A stretch of 64,000 nucleotides of DNA, from NCBI GenBank assembly GCA_051313645.2, contig JBNRSN020000007.1:98518001-98582000 (forward strand). Direction: 5' to 3'. Positions 8,020-59,600 of the stretch are shown here, piece by piece (the stretch's first letter is position 1; every line of letters starts with the position of its first letter). The notes under the pieces are model-generated. The model was not told the DNA's origin. It searched no databases and saw nothing but the letters and a program-made list of their open reading frames with translations. Source of the stretch: Centroscyllium fabricii (lineage: Eukaryota). The position numbers and the translations under genes are program-made.

Positions 8020-8328
8020 GCGTGTTAGCATAGGAGAAGTGGAAAGGAAAATCGGGGGAAGGGGGTTGGTATATAACAGGCAGCTGATATACTGCCGTTC
8101 ATTTTGTCCTTTCTGCTGAAGTAGAATTTCACCCCCATAGGATCTTCTTACCTTGTGTTGTTGACACGGTGAATTCCTGATCTTGGTCATGTTATTAGGC
8201 ACAGGACTTTGTTATTTACCCTTAAATATTATGACCTCAATCTCAATATGATGTATTGCAAAGATTGTCTGTAATCTTCTAAGTAGAGCTTCTTAATAAA
8301 AGTTTATTTTCAATTGTGTTTTTTGTAG

Positions 8329-8406
8329 AATATTTTACTGACCTGAGAGGCCGTAGTCAGGATGATCCAGCCCTTCGCTGGGAATTTTATGGCAGCTCTG
8401 CATGTG
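8329..8406 (+). CDS. BCORL1: BCORL1 internal exon (post-ankyrin linker)
   Basis: ttttgtag|AA...TGTG|gtgagt; 78 bp, phase 1-1; EYFTDLRGRSQDDPALRWEFYGSSAC. Confidence 0.9.
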
Positions 8407-8790: not shown

Positions 8791-9339
8791 CAGGTTGTGC
8801 ACCGAAAATCCGTGTCCCTAAAAGCCGGCAGCTTCAGTTTGCCGGCACAAATTGCCCCGACTGCACTGCGCATGAGCAAGATGGCAGCTGCCATCGCGGC
8901 TTCGGCAAATGATCTGCGCATTTTCTCGACAGCTGAGCCCCGTGACTGAGGCGGACAGTCACTAGGCAACAGCTGTCAGCCTGAGTCCGGCTCGGCGGCA
9001 GCAGCAACCCGAAAGGCGATGGAGAGGGAAGGTGGACCTACTGGGCCCGACCCGCGCCCGCACAACCCTCCTTCCCCCCTCTGCAAGACCGGCCTTTCAC
9101 TGCTGCCCGACAGCCCTAAAAGGCAAACGGAACGCCACACAAGCCTGAGCCCCTCAAAAAACTTCGCGGCGGCCATTATTGGTTGATCTGCGCATGCGCG
9201 CGCCAACCGATCCCAATGTTGTGCGCATGCGCGCGGCCATTTTGAATGATGCGCAGTGACCAACTTCGTTCTCCCGGTTTTTTCAGTTTCCCGGCACTGG
9301 CCTGGTCCCGCCCGTGGCGGATTAATGGTGCACAACCTG
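8791..9339 (-). mobile_element. Tigger-like non-autonomous element, copy 2
   Basis: TA|CAGGTTGTGCACC ... GGTGCACAACCTG|TA; subterminal blocks shared with other copies; unique GC-rich interior. Confidence 0.8.
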
Positions 9340-10495: not shown

Positions 10496-11550
10496 CAGGT
10501 TGCGCACCGTTATACCGGCACGGGCGCGACTAGGCCCGGGCCGGTATAGCGAAAAAAACAGAAGAATGAAGCTGGCCAGCGTGCACCATTCAAAATGGCC
10601 GCACGCATGCGCGTAACATTGCAAGCACAAAATCGCCTCTCTCTCCTTGCCACAGGATTGACAGGCTGCTTCACCAATCATAAGCCTCCTGATCCCCCCC
10701 AGCCACGGGATTGACAGGCCGCTCCACCAATCACAAACATCCTATCACCCTAAGCCGCAGGATTGACAGGCTGCTTCACCAATCACAAGCCTCCTCTCCC
10801 ACCCCCAGCCACAGGATTGACAGGCCATTCCACCAATCACAAACCTCCTATCACTCTAGCCGCAGGATTGACAGGCTGCTCCACCAATCACAAGCCTCCT
10901 ATTACCCTAGCCACAGGATTGACAGGCCATTCCACTAATCACAAACCTCCTGCCACCCCGCCCCGCCCGCCACCACTCAAGACCAGCCAGGCGTTTCAAG
11001 CGAGGTTGAGGGCACGCGATAAACACCGCAGCTCTTAAAGGGGAACGGCGAGCGCATGCGCAGATCATGTGAAATGGCCACCGGAAGTCGGGCCCTCGAT
11101 GTCGGGCATCTGCTCCTCATCCGACAGGTCGGAGAAGGCCTCCTCCTTCTCCTCCTCGTCTCTCAGCAACTCCGAGCCGCCGGAGCTCTCGGCCTCCCGA
11201 GTCCGAGTCGCTGCTGCCTTCCATGGGGTCGGCGTCTCCTGAAGCCATCGGGACGGTAAGTGTGAATGCTGGCTGATCAAAGACTGGATTGGGCTCTGCT
11301 GCTCTCTCTCGCCTGTCCTCTCCTGTATGTCTGCTCGCCCCGACTGCCCTGCGCATAATGGCCACCGCGATCGAGGCTTCGACGAATGATCTGCGCATGC
11401 GCTGCTGAACAGCGAGCGCATGCGCAGATCATTCGCCAAAGTGTCGATCGCGGCGGCCATTTTGCGCATGCGCAGGGCAGTCGGGGCGATTTGTGCTGGA
11501 CGACTGAAGTTGCCAGCTTTTTGGTTACCGGATTAACGGTGCTCAAGCTG
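10496..11550 (+). mobile_element. Tigger-like non-autonomous element, copy 3 (largest cargo)
   Basis: TA|CAGGTTGCGCACCGTTA ... TAACGGTGCTCAAGCTG|TA. Confidence 0.8.
10649..10952 (+). repeat. Six tandem 51-54 bp units carrying GGATTGACAG plus CCAATCA
   Basis: GGATTGACAG at 10655, 10708, 10760, 10814, 10865, 10916; CCAAT follows 9 nt later (last unit CTAAT). Confidence 0.9.
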
Positions 11551-12891: not shown

Positions 12892-13398
12892 CAGGTTGAG
12901 CACCGTTAATCCGGCACGGGCGGGACCAGGCCCGTGCCGGGAAAGTGAAAATCCCGAACGATTGAAGCTTCGGTGAGGGCATGCGCAGACCATTCAAAAT
13001 GGCCACCGCGAAAGACCGGCGGCCATTTTGAGTGGTCTGCACATGTGCTTATCGTTCGGGGAGTCCCGGCCTAGCCCGCGTTCGGGGAGTCCCGGCCCAG
13101 CCCGGGTTAAGGGAATCGCAGCCCAGCCCGCGATCGGGGAGTCCCGTCCCAGCCCGCGTTCGGGGAGTCCCGGCCCAGCCCGCATTCAGGGAGTCCCGGC
13201 CCAGCCCGCTATCGGCTCGGAGAGACCATTGTGAATGATCTGCGCATGCGCTCGCTGTTCTTTGGCGCATGCGCAGATCATTTGCCGAAGCATGAATCAC
13301 GGCGGCCATTTTGCGCATGCGCAGGGCAGTCGGGGAATTATTGCCGGACGTTCGAAGTTGCCGATTTTTCAGGTAACGGATTAACAGTGCTCAACCTG
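12892..13398 (+). mobile_element. Tigger-like non-autonomous element, copy 4, with an internal 26-bp tandem repeat
   Basis: TA|CAGGTTGAGCACCGTTAATCC ... GGATTAACAGTGCTCAACCTG|TA; six units of CGTTCGGGGAGTCCCGGCCCAGCCCG at ~13053-13209. Confidence 0.85.
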
Positions 13399-15221: not shown

Positions 15222-16429
15222 ATGGGAGGCCTTTTCTTCCTTTCCTTCTTGGCATTAGATGATCTCCAGCAGGAGCAGTTGCGACGACAGCAGCAGCAGC
15301 AACACACTCCTGTGGATCCTCCGGAGGCAGCACGGGCCAGAAGGCATCGGCGCATGGAAGGCCGTCACCGTAGAAGATACCCCCTAAACAGGGTCTACAG
15401 AGTCAGGGCCACCTACCTCAACATGAGTGAGCGGCAGTGCCAAAGGCAGCTCCGACTTTCCTGAGAGGCAGTCACAGACATCTGCACAATACTGCAGCAA
15501 CAGCTGGAGCCCAGAACACCAGGAAGACATGCCTTACCAGTGGCCCTCAAAGTCACCACCGCACTTAACTTTTTTGCCTCGGGCTCATTCCAAGGATCAT
15601 CAGCGGCATCTCCCAGTCGGCCGCACACACTTGCAGCAGACAGGTAACCGATGCCCTCTTTGCCCTCGCCCACAATTTCATCCATTTCACCAGGGATCGC
15701 GCAAGTGTGAGGGGGTGAGCGTTTGGAATAGCTCGTCTGGCAGGCTTCCCAAGGGTGCAGGGCATCATTGACTGCACACATGTGGCCCTTAGGGCACCCC
15801 CCAACAACCCAGTTGCTTTTGTCAACCGCAAGGGCTTCCATTCGCTCAATGTTCAACTGGTGTGTGACCACAACAAGGAGATTTTGCATGGGTGTGACAG
15901 GTACCCTGGCAGTTGCCATGACTCCTTCGTCCTGCGCCAGTCAACCTTGCCTGCGCTCTTCACACCGCCAGACGAAATTCCGGGATGGCTACTTGGAGAC
16001 AAGGACTATCCCCTCGGGACTTGGCTCATGACACCGGTCAGGTGGCCAGCCAATGAGGCTGAAGGGAACTACAACTCCAGCCACATCTCCACCAGATGCA
16101 TTATCGAGCACACCATCGGCTTGCTGAAGATGCGTTTCAGATGCTTGGACAGATCAGGTGGAGCCCTGCAATACTCCCCAGCCAGGGTCTCCAAAATGGT
16201 AGTGGTTTGCTGTCAACTTCACAACATGGCACAGCGTCGTAGCTTGCACATTCCTGACCAAGACCTGGCTCCTCGCATACCGTCCTGAGATGATGAGGAA
16301 GAGGAGGAGGAGGACGATGAGGAAGAGTACGGGGTTGCTCCAGCGCGGCAGCAGCTACCGCCAGCATTACGCGAGAACATTGCTGCCCGGCAAGCAAGGA
16401 ACGAGCTCATCCTTGCAAGATTTACTTAG
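15222..16429 (+). pseudogene. Harbinger (HARBI1-family, DDE_Tnp_4) transposase, disrupted
   Basis: [41 protein letters not shown]; in-frame stops (15462, 16286) and a frameshift. Confidence 0.9.
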
Positions 16430-22213: not shown

Positions 22214-22361
22214 AACAGGACAAGGAGACTGTTTGTAACATTTTGGCAAACCCCCCTGGCCTTGATGAAGAGGAAGATGAAGATACCAATTACCTTGTAT
22301 TTGAGTTTTCAGACAAACCTCCTCTTACATGTTACAATATACAAGCTTCCCTTTCTCATGG
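22214..22361 (+). CDS. BCORL1: BCORL1 penultimate exon (linker, start of PUFD)
   Basis: ttttcag|AA...CATGG|gtaag; 148 bp, phase 1-2; EQDKETVCNILANPPGLDEEEDEDTNYLVFEFSDKPPLTCYNIQASLSHG. Confidence 0.9.
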
Positions 22362-39649: not shown

Positions 39650-42085
39650 GAACAGAAGGAACAAGAGTAGGCCATTCAGACCCTCAAGCCTGTTCTGCTA
39701 TGCTGATCTTAACTCCATTCACCTGCCTTGGCTCCATATTCTTTCATACCCTTGTCCAGTAAAAAAATATCGATCTCAGATTTCAGATTATTAATTGAGC
39801 TAGCATCTACTGCTTTTTGTGGGAGAGTGTTTCACACTTCTACCGCCCTTTGCATGAAGAAGTGTTTCCTAACTTCACCCTTGAATGGCCTGTTTCTGGT
39901 TTTAAGGTTATGTCCTCTTGTCCTAGACGCCCCCACCAATGGAAAAGGTTTCTTTCTCTCTACCCTATCAATTCCTTTCAAAATCCTACAAATCTCAATC
40001 AATTCACCCCTTAACCTTCTATATTCCAGGGAATACAAGCCTAGTTTATGTAATCTCTCCTCATAATCTAACCATTGGAGCCCTGGTAACATTTGGGTGA
40101 ATTTGCGCTGCACTCCTTTCAAGGCCAATATATCCTTTCTAAGGAACTGAACACATATCCCCAGATGTGGTCTAACCAGGGCTTTGTATAGCTGTAGCAA
40201 AACTTTCTCCCCTTTATATTCTAGCCCTCTAGTTATAAAGGCAAACATTCCATTAGCCTCTTGATCATTTTTTGTACTTTTTAGTGATCTGTGTACATAG
40301 ACCCTTAAATCTCTTTAAACCTACACTGTTCCTAGCTTTTCACCATTTAAATAATACTCGGATCTATCCTTTTTTGGTTCAAAATGGATGACCTCACATT
40401 AAAGCTCATGGAATTGCAGGCAAATTGTTGACCACGCTGGGTGGGCTCAACAAGGTCAATCAAGTTAAAATCGCGTGGATTGATCACATCTCGATGGAGG
40501 TGGGACTACAATGCCAAAAGTTGTAGTCCCGCCTCCTACCCGATTTCTGAATTAAAATCTCCCCCTACTAGTCACTGAATTCCAATTCGAGGACATACCC
40601 ATTATCCCTAACCTCTGCCTTCTACTGGCTAACCAATCTCCTAATCAGATCAACAATTTCAAGATTCAAGATAATTTTATTGCCATGAGTAACTCGTACA
40701 ATGGAATGCTTACTCTGCATTCACTCCCACAATTATAAATGTAGAAAAGCAAAAAAAAGTTTAAAAAAACAAAAACAAAAGTATAAATATAGAAAAAATA
40801 ATAAGCAAATAAACAAATAAGTAACGAGTGCAATTAGCAATTAAGTAGGCGCACTGCCTGTGGGTAGAAACTGTTTTTGAACCTGCTAGTCCTGGTTCGA
40901 ATGCTGCAGTATTGACGGCCGGACCGCAGGAGGGAGAACAGATTGTGCCCAGGGTGATTGGGGTCCTTGATGATGGAGCGGGCCTTGATCCGACACCTGG
41001 CCTGGAAGATCTCCTCGATGGATGGAAGTGCACACCCAATGATTTTTTCTGCCGTCCTCACGACCCTCTGAATGGCTTTCCTGTCCTGAGCAGTGGTGTT
41101 GCCATACCACACAGTGACGCCACCCGACAAGACGCTCTCTATGGTGCCGCGGTAAAAGTTCACAAGCCATTGTGTGCTTATGCCGCATTTCCTCAGGCAC
41201 CATAAAGGGTAGAGGCGCTGGTGTGCCTTCTTCAGCATTGCCTCAGTGTTATAGTTCCAGGTCAGGTCGTCAGAGATCTGCAGACCTAGGAATCGGAAGC
41301 CACTGACTATTTCTACCGGTGTCCCGTCTATGATAATTGGTCGGTGGTTCCCTTGATGGCATCTGAAGTCCATGATGAGTTCCTTAGTCTTGCTGATGTT
41401 CAGGGCAAGGTTGTTATCATTACACCATCTCATCAGCTGAACTATCTCATCCCGGTACTCCGTCTCATCCTCATTGCTAATCAGGGCAATTACCGTGGTG
41501 TCATCGGTAAACTTTATTATCCGGTTGTTGCTGTGTCGGGCTGTACAATCATTTGTAAACAGAGAATACAACCGAGGACTGAGGCAGCAGCCTTGTGGCG
41601 CTCCGGTATTGAGGACCAGTGTGGATGAGGTGTTGTTCCCTATTTTCACCACTTGAGGCCTACCAGTCAGGAAGTCCAGAATCCAGTTGCAGATGGGGGT
41701 GCCCAGACCTAGGTCCTTCAGTTTCAGGATTAGCTTGGAGGGAACAATGGTATTAAATGCAGAGCTGTAGTCAATGAACAACATTCTGATGTAGGTGTCC
41801 CTTCTGTCTAGGTGTTCTAGGATAGTGTGCAGTGTTAGGGAGATGGCGTCATCCACAGACCTGTTTGCCCTGTTTGCGAACTGGAACGGATTTGCCTGCA
41901 ATTCCATGAGCTTTAATTTTAGCTAACAGTCTCTTATGTGGAATGTTATCAAATGCCTTCTGTAAGTCCATATAAACTACATCCATAGAGATTTCCCTGT
42001 CTACTACCTCAGTTACTTCCTCCAAAAATTCAATTAGGTTTGTTAGGCATGACCGAACCTTAACAAATCTATGTTGGCTTTCTCA
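39650..42085 (-). mobile_element. CR1 LINE fragment interrupted by a MITE end and a Rex1 insertion
   Basis: LLQLYKALVRPHL...RRLRGELIE...TRGH...HFFMQRAVEV; CR1 3' tail. Confidence 0.85.
40660..41889 (-). mobile_element. Rex1/Babar LINE, 5'-truncated, open RT frame
   Basis: 357-aa ORF 40834-41907: [27 protein letters not shown]; TSD ATTT (40656-40659, 41890-41893). Confidence 0.9.
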
Positions 42086-43175
42086 ATAAAATAATGGACG
42101 TTGAATTCCCAAAAGGGATTATGCAACTTATAATTAAAAGCCAGGTATTTAAATTTGTACGGTGGAAATTCCAGATTACCAACACAGGCCAATTGAAGAT
42201 CAAAAATAGTGCACCTTTCTGTGACCATCGCAATTAAGATTCTTGTGGAATCTTTAAGATTTTATCTGAATACTGACCCTTTAAGATTGCCCTTTTATCC
42301 TCTTGATTAGTAGTCCTGTAGTAGATTGCTGTCACCATCTTTTTATGGAGCACCTTTCTGCACAGCAGTGGGGCCATGAGGACCCACATCTACACTGATA
42401 TCCCTCCTAGAGAGGAGGTGTATGAGCCTCTGCCATCTATTCTCCATACATAGCCATCTATCCCCCACAGATATCTATTTATTCTCCATAGAGACCATGT
42501 GCTCCTGTAAGTGGTGCATTAGCTGCTCCATGTAGGTGGCCATCCTATCCATGGAGGAGCCTACAGTCGCCATCGCCTGCGACACTGGTGCTCATGTTGG
42601 AGATGGTCTCCTCCATTCTCTGAACATTTACAAACATCACACTTGCAAAACCTGTCAGAGCCCCCTGCACCTCCAGGATCGACCTCTTTCTGGATGGCCC
42701 CCGAGGCCCAGCATCTGCATGCAGCTGAGCAGAGCTGGGAGCGTCCTGCACCCTCTAGCGAGGAGTCTCCACTGCTGTTCATGTCAACACCATCTGCTCT
42801 TGCTCACTTGTGAGTTGCGATACACCAGGTGACAACACTATCTTGCGTGGAACCCACCCAGGTGTGCATCTCTGCGCTGGTGCTGGGTACGCTTATGTCT
42901 GGTGACTGATGAAATATATATACTTTCATCAGCCTGTGTTTCTACCTTAGACTTACCTGTAATGTACCGCCCACTTTTCTGTTGTATGTATTGGGCTCCG
43001 CCCCCTGTCTTTTGCCATATAAAGGACTCTTGAACTGTATGAGTCATTTGACCTGGAGAACTCAGTGTGGAATCATGTACCACAGTTCTTAGCTATTGAA
43101 AGCCTACCTTTGAGTCCTTAAAACTCTAGTTTGTGTTATTGATGGCCCATCAATTTTAATAGCTAAAACACCGAG

Positions 43176-44387
43176 ATGGATCGACTCCTGATACCAGAGC
43201 GCTTGGATCAAGACCCCCATACCTCAGATGCAGCTGCACAGTTCGGACACTGGTTCCAGTGCTTCGAATTTTTTCTTGAAACCTCTGCTGCCACTATAGC
43301 AGCCACGACCACCACCGGGGATGTGAAGCTGGGAATTCTACAAAATCAGCTGAGCCATCGGGTCTCAACCCTCATCAAAGATGCCACTGGCTATGGGGAT
43401 GCCTGCACCACCCTGAAGGTCCACTACGTGCGGCCAGTGAACGAGGTGTACGCCAGACATCTTCTGACTACCCGCAAGCAGCGGCCTGGTGAGTCACTGA
43501 AGGATTTCATGCTGAGCCTAAAAGTACTGGGCAGAGACTGTAACTGCAAGGCTGTGTCTGCCACCGTGCACATGGAGGAGCTGATCCGCGACTCCTTTAT
43601 TGCAGGACTCAGTTTGAACTACATTCGACAGAGGCTGTTTGAGAAAGAGAAAATAGATTTAAAACAAGCTATGGACATAGCGCGATCGCTGGATATGGAC
43701 CAGAGGAACGCTGAGTCCTATTCCTCAGGCCACGCGGCCCACCCTGCCTCGTGCGCGCCGTGGGGGAAGCCATCTTCGCCTCCCAGACTTCAGGCCAGCC
43801 CAGCACCATCGGAGTCCCAGCCTCCACCCAGGAGCCCCACTACTACCGCGATGCATCGGGGCCTGAAATGTTACTTCTGCGGCCAGGACAGGCACTCCAA
43901 GCTTCTGTGCCCAGCGAAGGGCACCACTTATTTCAAATGCGGGAAGAAAGGACACTTCAGCAAAGTCTGCAGAGGGAACCCGGCCTCCAGCTCCTCCACT
44001 GCCGCGTGCACGCCGTGGGGGCAGCCATCTTGGACGCCATCTTGCCCCGACTCCTCCAGCTCCTCCACTGCCGCATGCATGCTGTTGGGGCAGCCATCTT
44101 GGACGCCATCTTGTCCCAACTCCACGAACTCCCAGGACCCAATGGTGGCCTCGATCATGGAGGATCAATCCAGGCCACACCCATTGTCTAAATCAATGAG
44201 GGACATAAAAGTAAACGGGAACAAGGTGAAATGCCTGATTGACTGCGGGAGCACCGAAAGCTTCATCCAACCTAGCCTGGTGAAGCGACTTTCACTAACG
44301 GTAGTCCCTGCACAGGGAAAATTGCCATGGCTGACAAGCCTCATACCTCCCATATTACAGGTTTTTGCATGGTCATGTTATCGGTAA
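43176..44387 (+). CDS. Gypsy Gag (CCHC knuckles) plus aspartic protease
   Basis: CYFCGQDRHSKLLC; protease LIDCGS. Confidence 0.85.
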   Translation: MDRLLIPERLDQDPHTSDAAAQFGHWFQCFEFFLETSAATIAATTTTGDVKLGILQNQLSHRVSTLIKDATGYGDACTTLKVHYVRPVNEVYARHLLTTRKQRPGESLKDFMLSLKVLGRDCNCKAVSATVHMEELIRDSFIAGLSLNYIRQRLFEKEKIDLKQAMDIARSLDMDQRNAESYSSGHAAHPASCAPWGKPSSPPRLQASPAPSESQPPPRSPTTTAMHRGLKCYFCGQDRHSKLLCPAKGTTYFKCGKKGHFSKVCRGNPASSSSTAACTPWGQPSWTPSCPDSSSSSTAACMLLGQPSWTPSCPNSTNSQDPMVASIMEDQSRPHPLSKSMRDIKVNGNKVKCLIDCGSTESFIQPSLVKRLSLTVVPAQGKLPWLTSLIPPILQVFAWSCYR

Positions 44388-46811
44388 AAGGCAATGATTA
44401 TAAAAAATTTAAACTGTTGGTAATGCCAGATCTCCGTGTGAGCGTGATCTTGGGTCTGGATTTCCAGTGCCACCACCAAAGTATCACGCTTACCTATGGT
44501 GGGTCCCAGCCGCCCCTCACAGTGTGCGGTCTGGCTACCCTGAAGGTCAAGCCACCCTCCCTGTTCGCCAATCTCGCACCAAACTGTCGCCCTATAGCGA
44601 CCAAGAGCAGGCGGTACAGCGGGGAGGACAGACGGTTCATTGCGGCGGAAGTGGAAAGACTACAGCGAATTATTGAATGCAGTACCAGCCCGTGGCGCAC
44701 CCAGGTGGTCGTGGTTAAGGGTAGCGAAAAGAAGCGGATGGTGATAGACTATAGCCAGACGGTTAACCTATGCACCCAGCTGGACGCCTACCCCCTGCCC
44801 CGCATAGCGGATATGGTCAATGAAATCGCTCAATACCGGGTGTTTTCCACCATTGACCTAAAATCAGCATACCACCAGCTCCCCATTAGGCCGGGGGACC
44901 GTCCATATACCGCCTTTGAGGCGAACGGACGCCTCTACCACTTGCTCAGAGTCCCCTTCGGGGTAATGAATGGGGTCTCGGTCTTCCAGAGGGAGATGGA
45001 CTGCATGGTCGATGAGAACCAGTTAGCAGCCACCTTCCCATACCTTGACAACGTCACCATCTGCAGCCACGACCAACAAGACCACGACTCGAACCTTGCA
45101 AGGTTCATGAAAACCACCCACAGGCTCAACCTCACCTACAACGAGGATAAGTGCGTCTTTAACACAATGCGCCTCTGTATCCTGGGCTGCGTGGTGGAAA
45201 ATGGGGCTACCCCTACCAAGCACCCCCAAGGACCTGAAAAGGTGCCTGGGGTTCTTTTCCGACTACGCCCAATGGGTCCCCAATTACGCCGACAAGGCCC
45301 GTCCCCTCCTGAAATCAACGTCCTTCACGCTCACGGCCGAGGCCCACGAGGCCTGCAACAGTATTAAGCTCGATATTGAGAAGGCCGCGCTGCGGGCAGT
45401 GGACGAAGACGTCCCTTTCCAGGTAGAAAGCGATGCGTCCGACTTCGCTTTAGCAGCCACCCTCAATCAGGGTGAGCGGCCCGTGGCCTTTTTCTCAAGA
45501 ACCTTCCAAGGGCCCGAGACCAGGCATTCTTCGGTAGAGAAAGAGGCCCAAGCTATAGTGGAGGCAGTGCGGCACTGGAGGCACTACCTAGCCGGAAAAC
45601 GCTTCACCCTGCTTACCGACCAGGGGTCGGTAGCTTTCATGTTTAATAACATGATTAAAAATGATAAAATCCTCAGGTGGCGGATCGAACTCTCTACGTT
45701 CGAGTACAACATTATATATAGGCCGGGGGACCTCAACGAATCCCCCGATGCCCTATCACGAGGGATGTGTGCCAGCATCCAGGGACACAGGCTACAGGCC
45801 CTCCACAATGACCTCTGCCACCCGGGATTCACCCGGCTATTACACCTTATAAAATCCCATAACCTGCCCTACTCCATCGAGGAGGTCCGGTCCATGACCA
45901 GTAACTGCTGCATCTGTGCGGAATGCAAGCCCCATTTTTACAGGCCCGACCGAGCCCACCTGATCAAAGCTACACAGCCATTCGAGCGCCTGAGCTTAGA
46001 TTTCAAGGGACCCCTCCCCTCCACCAATCGCAATGTGTACTTTCTCAACATTGTGAATGAGTACTCACGCTTCCCATTCGCCTACCCCTGCCCAGACATG
46101 ACCAGTGCCACGGTCATCAAGTGCCTCGGCAGCCTGTTTTGCATGTTCGGCATGCCAAACTACATCCACTCTGACAGAGGGGCGTCATTTATGAGCGACG
46201 AACTGCGCCAGTACCTGCTGTCAAAAGCGATAGCCACGAGTCGGACCACTAGTTATAACCCCCGGGGTAATGGGCAAGTGGAGAGGGAGAACGTGACAGT
46301 GTGGAAGGTGGTCGCCTTAGCATTAAGGTCTAAAGGCCTCCCTGCCTCCCGCTGGCAGGAGGTCCTCCTAGACATACTTCACTCGATCAGGTCGCTCCTG
46401 TGCACCGTGACCAATGCCACTCCTCACGAGAAGATGTTTGCATTTCCCCACAAATCAACTTCAGGAGTGTCCCTACCTTCATGGCTCTCCACCCCAGGAT
46501 CTGTCCTACTACGGCAGCATGTGAGGGGCCACAAAACGGATCCCATTGTGGAGGCAGTACACCTACTGCACGCGAACCCGCAGTACGCATACGCCAAGCA
46601 CGCCGACGGGCGTGAGGACACTGTGTCCATAAAGGACCTCGCCCCGGCAGGAAGCGACGGCATCCCGCCCTCACCACCCCCAGAATTACCTGCTACACCC
46701 CCTGCACATGGGTATGCCCAGGAGGGCACCACAGACACCCGGCCTGAACCCGGGGTACTGTTGCGCCAGTCAGGACGGACTATCACACCCCCGGACAGAC
46801 TAAATCTGTAG
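44327..46811 (+). pseudogene. Gypsy Pol (RT-RNase H-integrase), frameshifted
   Basis: IDLKSAYHQ, PFG, YLDN; ESDASD, EKEA, LTDQ; HxxxxHPG..CxxC; LDFKGP, HSDRG, NGQVER. Confidence 0.9.
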
Positions 46812-49211: not shown

Positions 49212-50591
49212 TGTGGTAATATTGAACAGACTTCTGGGGGAAGACTAAGGGGTGAACTCTGTAAATGTCACTTCCTGTTTCCTGTTACTATAAATACTGT
49301 GTCATAGATGGTATTCTCCTTTAAGGATTCCATCTTTAAATTCTATGTCTGTTCTCTGTTTAATTGATAATACCTCGTTTACGAGTGCAATACACCTTTA
49401 TTGTACCTCGTTTACTAGGACATTACCTGATTGGACGGTCCTGATCAATCAATTTAGCTTGAGCTGTATATAAGCTTTGGGTTGGCAACAGGAGATTGCC
49501 GGATCGTTAAATCACTAAATCTACTACTAGGAAACAGATGGTGTGTCCTAGCTCTGAGGAGGCGGTCGTGTAGTGGGGTGAACCTGCTTGTAGATGAAAT
49601 GGATTCTCCTGCTGAAGGCTCTGTTGGAGTTAGTCTCCTCGGTGGAGCGGACCCTGGAGAATTCCTGTTTCTGCATTCTGGACATTGCTCTCTATCACCT
49701 GAACTCAGGTTTGGACATTAATTCTGTTATTATAAATCTCTCTGATGAAGTAGTCGTTGTAAAGGGTTCTACTCACAGAAGAAAATCTTGTTCCAGTTCC
49801 TAAAACTCTCTGATGAAGTAGTCATTGTAAAGGGTTCTACTCACAGAGGAAGATCTTGTTCCAGTTCCTAACTCTCATGCAATAGTCGTTATAAAGGGTT
49901 CTACTCCCAGAAGAGAATCTTGTTCCAGTTCCTAAAACTCTCTGATGAAGTAGTCGTTGTAAAGGGTTCTACTCACAGAAGAAAATCTTGTTCCAGTTCC
50001 TAAAACTCTCTGATAAAGTAGTCGTTGTAAAGGGTTCTACTCACAGAGGAAGATCTTGTTCCAGTTCCTAAAACTCTCTGATGAAGTAGTCGTTGTAAAG
50101 GGTTCTACTCACAGAAGAAAATCTTGTTCCAGTTCCTAAAACTCTCTGATGAAGTAGTCGTTGTAAAGGGTTCTACTCACAGAGGAAGATCTTGTTCCAG
50201 TTCCTAACTCTCATGCAATAGTCGTTGTAAAGGGTTCTACTCCCAGAAGAGAATCTTGTTCCAGTTCCTAACCTCCTTGATGCTCTTCGCTGAGTGTCCT
50301 GGGGGCCCGAAGCGTATTATGAATGTCATTGATCTCTGTAATGTAATGTAATAATTGACTTTGTGTATATATTGTTTGGTTACTACTTAGAATTAAAGGA
50401 ATCTTAGTTCTAGACTGTTGTCCAGTGTCTTGCATTTGGGCCCCACCACCAAACCGTTACATACTGGAACTGCTTAGTATGGGGAGAAAGCTTCACCTGG
50501 AAGCATGGTAAAACCCTTCTTTGTACATAGTGATAATGTAGTGGTTTAAAGCTTTGCTTTAAGTTATTGATGTATCAGACTCAATTATTAC
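49212..50591 (+). mobile_element. LTR-like insertion (boundaries uncertain) containing a tandem array
   Basis: Interrupts Harbinger sequence; ETS (ACTTCCTG), reverse CCAAT, TATATAA ~49467, ATTAAA ~50392; candidate ends GTTACA 50461 or ATTACA 50591; no TSD found. Confidence 0.45.
49738..50271 (+). repeat. Eight tandem 66-68 bp units in order A-B-C-A-B-A-B-C
   Basis: Unit starts 49738, 49806, 49872, 49938, 50006, 50074, 50142, 50208; core GTCGTTGTAAAGGGTTCTACTC...ATCTTGTTCCAGTTCCTAA. Confidence 0.95.
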
Positions 50592-53552: not shown

Positions 53553-55584
53553 TTTAAGATCGCCTACTTCCACCAATGTAACATCCCCCATCTCCACCCC
53601 TACCTCAGTTTATATGTTGCTGAAACCCGTATCCATGCTTTTGTTACCTCTAGAATCGACAATTCCAGTGCTCTCCTAGCCAGCCAGCTATCTTCCACCC
53701 TCTATAAGCTTCAGCTCATCCAAAACTCTGCTGCCCATGCCCAAATATGCACCAAGTCCCATTCGCCTATCACACCTGAGCTCGCTGACCTACCTTGGCT
53801 CCCAGTCCACCAACATCTCCACCTTAAATTTCTCATCCTTATGTTCAAATCCCTCCATGGCCTCACCCCTCCCTGTCTCTAACCTTCTCCAGCTCCACAA
53901 CCTTTCAAGAACAGTGCGTTCCTCCAACTCTGGCCTTTTGTGCAATTCCACTCCCTTTGCCCCAGCATTGGCAGCCGTGCCATCAGCTGTTGACGTATCG
54001 TCAATGAATAAACAAAGACGAGTAGTTACCTAAACTACAGGCTTTTATTAACTAAGAATGGAGCTGGTCTCCTGATGAGGTCAAGGTGAAGAATGAATGG
54101 GGGCAGGTCTGCACTCACCTATATACTCCGACCTCAGGGGAGGAGTTAGGGGTGTGGCTGACCTGGCCTACAATATTATACAGGTAGACCAGCAACTATG
54201 TACAGTGGTTATACACGGTTACCACATTCACCCCTTCTTTAAAAACAAGTCCGGCGGGGTGAACATGCCTTTGGGTGGGAACAAAAAGAGATATATACAC
54301 AGAGTCCTTTCACATTTTGTTGTCAGTCCCTCCGGCGGTCGCGTCTGCCTGAGGGACCGCCGGGGTGCCGGCGATGGTGGTACCGGTTGCAGGGCCGGGG
54401 TCGTGCTCTCCGCCAACGGTGCTAGCGGTGCGGCGTCCGATCCCGGGTCGTTGGTCGGTGGTGATGAGGGCCCTGGTGTGTGTATATATGGGGGCCAGTA
54501 GTCGGTGGGTGGTGGCTGGTCGAACTGAGGCTCGACCGGGGGTTCTGCCATTGTGCTCCCAGTAGGCGCCAGATCCCTGATCGAGACCGTATCCTCGCGC
54601 CCGTCCGGGAATGCCACGTAAGCATATTGCGTGTTGGCGTGGAGCAGGTGCACCTGTTCCACCAGGGGGTCGGTCTTGTGGCTGCCGACGTGCTTTCTAA
54701 GCAATACTGGCCCTTGCGCTGTCAGCCACAGCGGGAGTGCTGTCCCCGAAGTCGACTTCCTAGGAAAGGAAAACAACAGGTCATGAGGTGTGGCATTAAT
54801 GGCGGTACACAACAGAGAGCAGATGGAATGGAGCGCGTCTGGGAGGACCTCCTGCCAACAGGAGACTGGAAGGCCTCTGGACTTCAGGCCCAGGTTGACC
54901 GCCTTCCAGATGGTCCCGTTCTCCCTTTCTACCTGGGCGTTCCCCCGAGGGTTGTAACTGGTCGTTCTGCTTGAGGCAACCCCTTTCTGAAGCAGGAACT
55001 GATGCAGTTCGTCGCTCATGAACGACGACCCCCGGTCGCTATGGATGTAGCTGGGGAGACCGAAAATGGCGAACAGCATGGTGAAGTGTTTGATATCCAT
55101 TGCGCTCGTCATGTCTGGGCAGGGGAAGGCAAAGGGGAAGCGTGAGAACTCGTCTATGACCGTCAGGAAATACGAGTTGCGGTCAGTGGAGGGGAGGGGG
55201 CCTTTGAAGTCCACGCTCAGGCGTTCAAAGGGGCGGGTGGCCTTGATGACGTGCGCCCTGTCTGGCCTGTAGAACTGGGGTTTGCACTCAGCACAGACAG
55301 GGCACTCTTTGGTCATAGCCTTAATCTCCGTGATGGAGTAGGGGACGCTACGGGATTTGACGAAGTGGGCGAGTCTGCAGTGCGTAGCGCCGCACTGTGT
55401 CGGGGTGTATAAAGCTCTCTGTGCTACCGGTGTCGAACAGGCAGTTAGTGGCGTGCCCGTCCACCTTTATCCCCATCATGGAGTTGGACAAGGTGTGCGG
55501 CCTAGCCTGATCGACAGTGACTGAGGCCAAAGTGTATGTGTGTGTGTGGGGGCCCTCCGCTAGCTGGGGCCCCGGCCGGGGCGG

Positions 55585-55930
55585 TTGGCAAGATGGCCAC
55601 TCGGAAGATGGCGGTGCTGGCGATTCCCACGTGTCCGGCTGCTGTGGACAAGATGGCGCCGCCCATGGTTCACACGCGGCCGACCGCTGTGGGCAAGATG
55701 GCGGCGCCTGTGGTTCGCACGCGGCTGGCCGCTGTGGACAAGTTGGCGGCGCCCGTGGTTCGCATGCGGCCGACTGCTGTGGATAAGATGGCGGCGTCCG
55801 TGGTTCACACGCAGCCGATCGCTGTGGACAAGATGGCAGCGCCCGTGGTTCACACGCGGCTGACCACTGTGGGCAAGATGGCGGCGCCGGGGGTCGCACA
55901 TGACCGGTCGCGGTCGCGTTTGGGATGGCA
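55585..55930 (-). repeat. 45-bp coding tandem repeat (AACEPRAPPSCPQRS) in the gag tail
   Basis: CAAGATGGCG-type motif recurs at 55649, 55694, 55739, 55784, 55829, 55874. Confidence 0.9.
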
Positions 55931-56699
55931 GCGCCTGTGCCGTGCGCGCGGCCGGCCTCCACCGTATAGTTAAAGGGGATGGAGGCGCCCGCGATTTACC
56001 CCCGGCTGACCGCTGCTGGGTCGCGCTGCAACACCGTACCTGTAGCCACGGAGTGGCGTCGTTGTTCTCACAGGCCGCGCTGTTGGGTCTGGAGGTGGAG
56101 GCCGGGCTGGATTTGCACGCCTTAGCATAGTGTCCCTTCTTCGCGCACCGCGCGCAGATCGCATTCTTTGCGGGGCACTGCGCCCGCGGGTGCTTTCCTT
56201 GGCCGCAGAAGTAGCATCTGGGCCCCTTCGCAGTCGCCGCTGCCATCGTGGAGGCCTCAGCCCGTCTCGGTGTCGCCCAGGGGTCAGGGGTACCCGCGTG
56301 GGAGTCGTGGTCCCTGTACGCGTCCATCTTCCGAAACGCTCCATCCACCGCATTAGAAAGTGTTATCGCGGACTCGAGCGACAGTGTCTCCTGCTCCAGC
56401 AGCCGCTGGCGAGCCTGGCTGGATCTGAGTCCTGCCACATAGGCATCGCGGATTAGGAGGTTCGCCTCTTCCTCTGCTGTCCTTGCCTTGCAGTGGCAGG
56501 CCCGTGCAAGGGCTTGGAGCGCTAGCAGAAATTGTTCATTGGACTCACCGAGTCGTTGCCTTCTGGTCGCCAGAACATGCCTGGCATAGACCGAGTGGGC
56601 CGGGCGCATGTAGCTGTCCTTCAATTTCTTGACCGCTTCCTCGTAAGTCTTGAGGCCGCGGATAAAGGAGTACACCCGGCCGCTGATCCGTGATGAGAG

Positions 56700-59600
56700 T
56701 GTAGGAGTCAACGGACTACCTACTCGCTTTTGGAAGTAAAAAGACGTGAGATGCAGAGCACTGTTACAACACGTCTTTATTACATCGCTAGGAAGTTCAA
56801 ACTGAAAGACAAAACCCGCGAATCTGCAAAGCACTCTGAGGCGCCTGGGTCGGGCTGAGTGGCGGTTGCTTAAGCCACTGAGGGACCGAGGCTGGCAAAC
56901 CGGTTGTCCAATGGGACTGCGGGAGCAGGACCGGCAGTTGCATGGGGATTATGCCTGAGAGGGGGAGCCCCAGTGGCTTCCCTGGGTAGTGCCGCTACAC
57001 ACGCCCCCCCAGAATCCCCATGCACATGGAAGGTCAGCCTGCGGGAAGGTTTGAGCAGGCGACCAGAGCGCGTGTGGTAGCCTGCGGGCGTGTCTCGGAC
57101 AGGGGCGGGATCTGGCCGGGGTGTGGCCGTGGCGGCTGGGGCCAGCGTGGCCGCCGGGGGCGGTGAGGGAGGGGGGACAAAAATGGCTGGAGGGGGCGGG
57201 GGTTGGACGGGCGTGGGCTCGTCGGCGGGGACGATCAGCCCCGCGTGGGGGGCCGGGGGACCCGGGTCGGACAAGGCGGGGTCCACGTGAGCCGCCTTCA
57301 GCCTGTCGATGGACACCAGGTCCTTTCTCCCGCCGACTGCGAGGAGGAAGGCTTTGTCCCCGGGCTCCAGGACGCGGAAGGCACCTGTGTAGGGTGCCTG
57401 GAGGGGCGTCCGGTGGGCGTCCCGGCGCACGAAGACGAAATGGGCCTGGCGCAGCTCAGCGGGCACATGGGTTGACCGGGGCCCGTGGGACAACGTGGGT
57501 GCGGGAAGGAGGCGGTGGGCTGGGTCATTGTTGCGGGCCAGCTGTTCGGCCACCAACCAGCCCTCGGTAGTGGAGGGGAGAAATTCCCCGGCGATGCGGA
57601 GGGGTTGGCCCAGGACTAACTCGGCCGAGGAGGGGCTGAGGTCTTCCTTGGGGGCCGATCGCAGCCCGAGCAGGACCCAGGGGAGTCTGTCGAGCCAGTT
57701 GGCGTCGGCCAAGCTGGCGCGGAGGGAGGCCTTGAAGGCGCGGTGGAAACGCTCGCACAAGCCGTTGGCCTGGACATGGTAGGCCGTTGTGCGGTGCAGG
57801 GTGGTCCCGAGGCCGGCGGCGATTGCGCCCCAGAGCTGTGAAGTGAACTGGGGGCCTCTGTCGGAGGTGATGTCCGACGGGACGCCGAAATGGGCCACCC
57901 AGGCAGAGATGAAGGCACGGGCCACATCCGCCGCGGTGGTGGAGGACAGGGGAATGACCTCGGGCCACCTGGTGGTGCGGTCCACCACCATGAGGAGGTG
58001 TGTGTAGCCCTGTGAGAGGGGGAGGGGGCCGACCAAATCCACGTGGCCATGGTCGAATCGGCGTTCGGGGACTGGGAAGTGTTGGAGGGGGGCCTTGGTG
58101 TGGAGGTGCACCTTGGCGCGTTGGCAGTCGGGGCAGGTGTTGGTCCAATCCCGCACGTCCTTGTGCAGGCCGGGCCAAACGAACGTGGTGGACATGAGCT
58201 TCTGGGAAGCTCGCATGCTCGGGTGGGAGAGGCCGTGGACGAGGTCGAAAAGTCACCTGCGCCACGAGGCGGGGACCTGGGGCCTGGGCTGGGGCACGGA
58301 GGTGTCGCATAGCAACGTAGTACCGGCCGCGTGGAAGTGGACGTCGGCCAGGGTCATGCCCGTGGCTGCGGAGCGGAGGGCCTGGAGTTCGGGGTCTGCC
58401 CCTGGGCCTGCGCCATATCGGCGTAGTCGACTCCGACCTGTACCGCGTGGAGGGAAAGTCGGGAAAGGCAGTCGGCGACGATGTTGTTTTTCCTGGACAC
58501 GTGGCGGATGTCGGTCGTGAACTCCGAAATGAAGTTCAGGTGGCGCTGTTGGCGCCCCGACCAGGGTTCGGTGACTTTGGCCATGGCGAAGGTAAGTGGT
58601 TTGTGGTCCACATAGGCCGTAACGAAGTCCCATGTGAAGCGCTGCCCCCCGACGCAGATCTCCGCCCGGCGCTTACCAAACATGGTAATGGCGGCGCCGT
58701 TGACTGCCACGAGGGGTGGGCCTGTGGGGCCGGCTTGGCGATCGAGGTGTGTGGCTGGCAGGATGCTGCACTGGGCGGCAGTATCGCAGAGGAATCGGCG
58801 CCCCGAAAGGGAGTCCGTTACGAACAGCAGCTTCCCTGCTGAACCGACGGCGTTGGCAGCGGCTGGGCCCTGTCGGCGGCGTGATGCTGCAGCGGCCTGC
58901 GTGGGCGCGAACGAGCATGGCGGCCTGCAGCGCTGGGCCTGGGGACCGAACCGTGCGTGGTAATAACACAGGCCTGCCTGCAGTTGTGGCGTGGGCCTGC
59001 GCGTGGGAGGAGAGAGCTGTGTGGCTGCACAGTCTGCGGTCCCACAGAGCTGGATGCGGTCTGCCGCAACCGCCAGGTCAGCGTAGGAGAGGCCCTCCGA
59101 GTTTGCCAGGGCCGTTTGAATTGACTGCGGAAGCAGGCTGATGAATAAGGCATGAAACAAGGGGCAGTCTCTGTGGTCGCCGAGGAGGGCCACCATCCGG
59201 TTCATGAGGCGTGTGGGGGTAGAGTCCCCGAGCCCCGGCTGATCGAGGAGCCGCTGGGCCCGCACGTCCTCGGGCAGGTCGTGGGCCTGGAGCAGGCGTG
59301 CTTTGAGGGCCCTGTACCTGTTGGCCTGCGATCCACATTGTCCGTTGCTACATGGCTGGGCAGCGCGGCCACAACGAGGAGGTAGCAATCGGCATCGCTG
59401 CTGAGGCATCTGAGTTCGAATTGGGCCTCTGCCTGGAGGAACCATGCGGCTGCCTGGTGTTCCCAGAAAGCGGGGAGGCTGACGATGCAGGGTCGGTCGG
59501 CAGCCGGCGTTAGGGTGGCCGCGATTTCGGCGGACGGCGTCGGGTTGGCCACGGGCTGCGTGTTCGAGGAGCCGACATCAAGGGCCACCAATTGTAGGAG

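Follow-up and report, generated by a model that had tools for sequence, protein, structure and literature searches.

Host gene fragments carried between the ends of non-autonomous TIR elements have been described in animals as Pack-TIRs (Tan et al. 2021, PMC8277862), and the extracts of that paper used here include a frog Pack-TIR with 291 bp of a 5'UTR and a description of antisense transcription towards the parent gene. Bat Helitrons such as HelibatN3/NUBPL (PMC4224331) have also captured 5' gene ends, sometimes serially, and in the extracted text are reported to have been amplified to a thousand copies or more. A regulatory composite, DECA-CCAAT, is bound by PBX/PREP, NF-Y and Sp2 (10.64898/2026.02.16.706105; PMC6023610; 10.1101/720102; PMC11802806). 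Excerpts of the first of these sources give the TALE/NF-Y/Sp2 site as GAnnGAC followed after 11 bp by CCAAT in the same orientation, the mouse Sp2 site tested there having a first base other than T, and excerpts of 10.1101/720102 report that TALE and NF-Y co-occupy such sites, which act as enhancers when the zebrafish genome is activated. Transposable elements may carry comparable sites: the mammalian NF-Y-bound LTR12, MLT1 and MER57 have CCAAT boxes, often repeated, together with a partner site (PMC12065363, in part), and the Xenopus tropicalis MITE-derived enhancers come from a MITE of about 1 kb that has direct repeats inside it and numbers thousands of copies (PMC12676858, in part). The shark element described here resembles these systems in its captured gene fragment, its copy number and the layout of its sites.

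We examined a window of 64,000 nucleotides of the Centroscyllium fabricii genome (assembly GCA_051313645.2, contig JBNRSN020000007.1), which has the BCORL1 3' exons on its + strand. The element of interest lies in a 13.8-kb BCORL1 intron (Table 1), in keeping with the intronic position given in the initial annotation, which had described it as a MITE copy with a complete promoter, possibly active in embryo or germline. Our main reading, to which we assign a probability of about three in four, is that it is a 1-kb non-coding transposon holding a reversed 5' piece of DDX60 and an array of sites in TALE/NF-Y geometry, that the two were likely gained in that order, and that the copy in BCORL1 is likely a passive insertion. 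The protein scan of the window covered 150 of its 680 ORFs of at least 45 aa. Elsewhere in the window (15719-16288, 40834-41922, 43167-46811 and 54228-59577) there are a Harbinger-type transposase fragment (DDE_Tnp_4) and LINE-like and Gypsy-like ORFs, the latter two recognised by eye, and positions 49733-50271 hold a tandem array of 8 x 68 bp with 90% matches.

Table 1. Features of the array-bearing element and its host intron, in window coordinates
Feature	Position	Strand	Remarks
BCORL1 exon upstream of host intron	8319..8405	+	
Whole element	10496..11550	.	1,055 bp; target-site TA duplicated at 10494-95 and 11551-52
Left TIR and left subterminal repeats	10496..10621	+	GCGCATGCGC / AAAATGGCC type
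Inserted module, about 420 bp (second cargo)	10622..11042	+	six DECA-CCAAT units preceded by a partial one, then C tract and GC-rich tail that ends CTCTTAAAGGG; not in the array-less subfamily
Tandem array, 6 x ~52 bp	10649..10950	+	GATTGAC-11 bp-CCAAT geometry, 5 perfect
GC-box-like run within hypervariable C tract	10956..10968	+	exact CCCCGCCCC in 13/48 copies
Leftover of the element's left subterminal repeat	11043..11090	+	NRF1-, YY1- and ETS-like sites
Captured host DDX60 5'UTR and first ~55 codons (first cargo)	11091..11355	-	frameshifted in the BCORL1-intron copy
Predicted splice donor	11250..11261	+ (antisense to DDX60 piece)	GACG/GTAAGT, after 11255; from sequence
Right subterminal palindromes and right TIR	11356..11550	+	hairpin 11370-11448
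BCORL1 exon downstream of host intron	22214..22361	+	start of PUFD domain

Four members of a single TIR family lie within the first 14 kb of the window, and the array copy is the third of them. Both ends were located in 26 of 30 array loci, and TA stood on both sides in 25 of these 26 copies, three copies having identical flanks. The element has no transposase coding, its sole identified coding piece being DDX60-derived, and its copy number is high; with its TIRs and TA duplications these features bear out the earlier MITE call and identify it as a non-autonomous, TA-flanked Tc1/mariner-type DNA transposon, possibly Tigger-like, which would likely be mobilised by a Tigger-like transposase acting in trans. 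Among 50 of 150 DDE_1 loci we found no transposase element carrying the TIRs of the array element; the main DDE_1 family has the TA flank, a CAGG start and a TTA.CCGGCAC-like core in common with it, but not the TIR. By the features tested the array element is a Pack-TIR: it holds internal non-TE sequence with a host parent (DDX60 exon 1, 79-83% identity), and it became multicopy by transposition after the capture, its copies occupying distinct TA-flanked sites on many contigs. With its two inserts it is a very high-copy, double-cargo animal Pack-TIR.

Two other members of the family in the window have features of their own. Copy 2 (8791-9339) belongs to a very young subfamily (354 candidates, 40 scored matches at 97-100%) in which both ends were present in 30 of 30 loci and in whose GC-rich interior an ORF begins with ATG at 9019, together with a site that we take to be RFX-box-like. 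This interior is possibly another captured gene start, and a search of the genome for its donor found none. Copy 4 has a different tandem array, of 6 x 26 bp, at 13053-13209.

According to the initial annotation the array copy holds six units, each a PBX/PREP-like decamer followed by CCAAT, in alternating A and B variants. The units are indeed there, with GGATTGACAG starting at 10655, 10708, 10760, 10814, 10865 and 10916 and the CCAAT box 9 bp on, but only five of the boxes are CCAAT, the sixth being CTAAT. The alternation is visible, if rough, in TRF periods of 51 (6 copies, 80%) and 105 (3 copies, 89%). The decamer had been given with T as its first base; this base is in fact G in all six units and in 237 of 253 family units. 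The reading as PBX/PREP plus NF-Y sites proved stronger than had been argued, since GAnnGAC-11 bp-CCAAT on the same strand, equal in spacing and orientation to the published DECA-CCAAT rule, occurs in 5 of the 6 window units and 204 of the 253 family units. The window contains 5 such composites as against a mean of 0.12 (maximum 1) over 60 Markov simulations; the six units are tandem duplicates and represent one event rather than independent ones. A structured-RNA or hairpin role for the array was considered and rejected, the folding having a z of 0.62 relative to shuffles and the Rfam matches being sub-threshold, miRNA-like and located on the right palindrome.

It had also been claimed that spacers vary between units while motifs are almost invariant. 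Comparison of the four unit types agreed as far as the motifs are concerned (0 of 14 columns differ), but the contrast had been overstated because invariance also extends to 21 of 28 non-motif columns. The remaining 7 of 28 give a Fisher p of 0.075, and a looser count of 9/28 gives p 0.019. The unchanging motif columns point only weakly to constraint in the ancestor. After insertion, mismatch to the unit-type consensus was 2.35% for DECA and 1.44% for CCAAT as against 1.88% for the spacer (236 assigned of 253 units, located by a matrix made from the window's own units, which can hide decay). Across the family the motifs have decayed between copies at about the rate of the spacer and show no conservation beyond that of neutral sequence, and we therefore see no family-wide selection after insertion and no domestication.

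Downstream of the array, the GC box (10956), GCGCATGCGC (11052), GAAATGGCC (11071) and ACCGGAAGT (11080) lie where they had been placed. Taken as a promoter kit they have mixed sources: the NRF1 and YY1 sites are the element's own subterminal repeats, also found in array-less copies, and the GC box is incidental, part of a hypervariable C tract and exact in a minority of copies (Table 1). Across the window there are 14 occurrences of GCGCATGCGC, with all four TIR-family copies represented. A long subfamily has the NRF1/YY1/ETS block, as do 30 of 30 relatives lacking the array; in a short subfamily it has been deleted, and it is missing from the 29 other array loci that were fetched.

Our searches covered the 7.2 Gb genome, whose proteins have their best matches in sharks, the loci from separate searches partly overlapping. 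The array search returned 1,755 candidates, and all 29 of those other top loci proved to be the same element with the DDX60 piece and 5-10 units each. An exact 25-bp unit pattern had 4,055 matches genome-wide (reversed control 0), the first 100 of which fall in 44 loci, scaling to about 1,600-1,800 loci. The supposedly complete promoter is therefore not peculiar to the third copy, its array being common to an estimated 1,800 or so dispersed copies. Nine dispersed copies have in common a ~150-bp insertion in unit 1, which indicates that the loaded element went on transposing. This insertion, which is accompanied by a short unit-1 duplication and has been spread by the element (L009, L011, L015, L016, L021, L026-L028, L030), resembles a Penelope-type end. 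CpG observed/expected is 0.84 in the element versus 0.25 in the intron; such retention is what a young element would show, but low methylation and activity would account for it as well.

The composite is not confined to this family. The canonical TGATTGACAG-N9-CCAAT occurs 857 times in the genome versus 21 times at N12 (the spacing comparison covers N9 and N12) and 0 times reversed, about 13 being expected by arithmetic. The first 30 canonical-site loci comprised 6 of the array element, 10 of an LTR-like family, 6 of a second repeat, 2 forming a pair, and 6 singletons. The LTR-like family (~285 bp, TG...CA; L172, L173, L176, L178, L185, L186, L189, L190) has one such site per copy, and the second repeat (L175, L179-181, L197, L199), which also carries it, is older. 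Tandem DECA-CCAAT arrays were found outside the family as well. One (L202, G000:C1:558962770-558963270) consists of 8 units of ~70 bp with GC boxes and directly precedes a short coding first exon of an IFT27-like gene (best match E 0.006); another (L203, G000:C1:508590550-508591710) has 18 composites plus GC boxes in ~1.15 kb. A similar composite run lies ahead of an ATG at L205. The module has its layout in common with these non-family arrays, and we therefore prefer a host-promoter origin for it, inferred from layout. As for the actual donor, two pattern searches led only to 2 loci of an unrelated repeat and to a copy of the family whose first unit is duplicated, a search with the module's right end returned family copies at 30 of 30 loci, and 8 further composite loci had no collinear match to the module. 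The promoter of the shark's own DDX60 gene has no such array.

The first cargo was recognised by way of contigs from other data. Long contigs of 7,293, 7,073 and 5,013 nt, from three runs guessed to be RNA, end on 11091-11264, which raised the suspicion of a minus-strand gene start; contigs cannot give transcript start, strand or level, and we take these as a lead to DDX60 and not as evidence of local activity. Two of the runs also gave short contigs bearing array units, which show only that the array subfamily exists in the organism concerned. Several pattern searches, the frameshifted window peptide and a representative library (0 matches) yielded no donor gene for 11091-11355. The shark's own DDX60 gene, an interferon-induced antiviral helicase gene, was located on G000:C711 near 330.405 Mb, and 11091-11355 aligns to it at 225/286 (79%, E 6e-61, G000:C711:330405277-330405557), the captured start codon lying at 11248-11246. 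Array-less copies align to the same gene at 82-83%. A motif taken from the intact reading frame had 161 matches, of which 30 loci were read; all were without the array and had a continuous acidic ORF, which matches shark DDX60 N-termini at up to 77% over 98% (E 1e-11, 7 matches). The element has 6-bp and 9-bp pieces that are absent from the shark's own gene, which has likely lost them since the capture; indel tables suggest that contigs of other sharks retain both. A 20-mer across the DDX60 start codon has 2,184 exact matches genome-wide. Since 18 of 44 array loci contain it exactly, recapture puts the DDX60 piece at about 5,300 copies. An in-frame BCORL1 chimera arising by splicing at 11255 was rejected, as 0 of 5 ATGs in 11001-11255 are in frame with the PUFD exons. 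We also noted two further, more distant DDX60-like copies in inverted orientation on G000:C822 near 17.56 and 17.86 Mb (53-62% identity), and, about 3.2 kb downstream from exon 1 of DDX60, a TIR-family member (L119:1711-2326) whose GC-rich interior is a different one; given the density of the family, this proximity may be chance.

The order of the two captures could be read from the DDX60 piece itself. A tree of 77 fragments split array-less (98/92) from array-bearing (95/94) copies, with rows aligning over less than 180 bp left out, the bootstrap unsettled, two array rows unresolved at the base, one row (L100) mislabelled and another (L048) having lost its array; the median end branch was 0.034, as compared with 0.13 to the DDX60 gene. 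A +1 base absent from the gene is present in 39 of 49 array-labelled rows versus 1 of 30 array-less rows, a contrast biased by selection of the array-less set with the in-frame motif, 9 of the 49 rows being unassignable. The array was found in 0 of the 30 loci picked by that motif. The tree split, the +1 base and the existence of an array-less, DDX60-carrying subfamily together indicate that DDX60 was captured first and the module at 10622-11042 second. The module replaces part of the left subterminal repeats, and it starts in mid-unit and ends in unrelated GC-rich sequence, like a copied fragment. Deletions, the ~150-bp insertion and changes in unit number came later.

We propose that gap repair or template switching brought a copy of DDX60 exon 1 into an empty element. 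One descendant would then have gained the 1-bp frameshift in the DDX60 piece and the ~420-bp module, likely from a tandem DECA-CCAAT host promoter, after which slippage or unequal exchange during amplification may have shifted the number of units (5-10 among the best array matches). Where accessible, intact units would bind PBX/PREP and NF-Y, with Sp2, making the copies latent enhancers or promoters; any promoter activity of the array would run antisense through the DDX60 piece.

The initial annotation had favoured an active intronic promoter or enhancer. In its fullest form this would mean that the BCORL1-intron copy has been co-opted, that TALE/NF-Y opens it in the early embryo or germline, and that its transcripts splice from 11255 to the PUFD exons. 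The copy does possess five perfect composites in canonical geometry, is CpG-rich, is oriented as BCORL1 and offers a consensus-type donor, and excerpts of 10.1101/720102 describe such composites as enhancers at zebrafish genome activation. Nevertheless, about 1,800 siblings have the same array, none of the five ATGs is in frame, and this copy has lost what most siblings retain, namely the sixth CCAAT, a seventh CCAAT that 41 of 47 copies have just after the GC-box run, and 13 bp of the tail, all of which makes co-option improbable. Nothing marks the BCORL1 copy as selected, and on its sequence it is most likely a passive insertion with latent binding capacity. A wider conjecture, in our estimation similarly improbable, would have the ~1,800 TALE/NF-Y cassettes firing in oocytes or early embryos through the DDX60 5' exon in reverse, with antisense or small RNA against the antiviral helicase gene as the product, and rewiring neighbours such as BCORL1, in a family that may serially collect CpG-island gene starts.

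The array might instead have arisen within the element, a single site having been tandemly amplified and favoured because TALE/NF-Y opening in the germline or early embryo raises the excision rate. Variation in unit number, the re-duplicated first unit of one copy, the constancy of motif columns between unit types (0/14 vs 7/28) and the occurrence of the same composite in the LTR-like family and the second repeat would all suit such selfish adaptation. We consider it rather unlikely, however, given that the motif/spacer contrast is weak (p 0.075), that an intact unit is present at only 18 of the 54 loci with the DDX60 piece that were checked, array-less copies having spread at least equally well, and that the module has the mid-unit beginning and unrelated GC-rich end of a copied fragment. 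Since each unit has short inverted arms (GATTG...CAATC) and the array sits within a transposon, the units could also be structural or transposase-binding repeats whose motif match is accidental. This is very improbable: folding of the array does not exceed that of shuffles (z 0.62), relatives that lack the array have transposed nonetheless, and the spacing in the units is that of the published 11-bp rule and of the genome-wide spacing peak.

For BCORL1 itself the finding is probably ordinary. Through the element, more than 4,000 intact sites with the geometry that TALE/NF-Y use at zygotic genome activation have been dispersed, and its array-bearing and array-less siblings, of similar age, form a natural experiment on the effect of an embryonic activator module on transposon spread or co-option, as well as a test for captured antisense fragments regulating the parent gene. 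In contrast to host promoters and enhancers, in which the extracted sources describe the DECA-CCAAT composite, the shark has its predicted counterpart six-fold in tandem on a mobile element. The NF-Y-bound mammalian elements in the extracts of PMC12065363 are all retroviral LTRs, and the TALE site of MER57 is 3', about 50 bp away and non-canonical. Only tens of the Xenopus tropicalis MITE copies are in open chromatin, and the extracted text of PMC12676858 describes no gene capture. Bat Helitrons, as excerpted from PMC4224331, attain similar copy numbers by another mechanism; they are rolling-circle elements without TIRs or TA duplication that carry promoter and exon of one gene in sense, whereas in the shark element array and exon are unrelated and face each other. 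Multicopy gene-capturing TIR elements of animals are reported to be rare and low-copy: the portion of PMC8277862 used here gives 4 multicopy cases (1.4%), its frog example has three copies, and the word shark occurs 0 times in its main text. The shark element, by comparison, has at least 2,184 copies (estimated ~5,300), a second cargo and a two-step capture that can be traced. Literature searches for shark DDX60-carrying transposons, shark TE promoters with NF-Y, zebrafish MITEs or other DNA transposons with NF-Y or PBX sites, and, among the matches listed, chondrichthyan captured-gene MITE/Tigger elements returned nothing relevant, and the element may be catalogued in Repbase or Dfam; among the systems compared, it is the animal Pack-TIRs, in which a non-autonomous TIR element encloses part of a host gene, that it extends into the thousands of copies.
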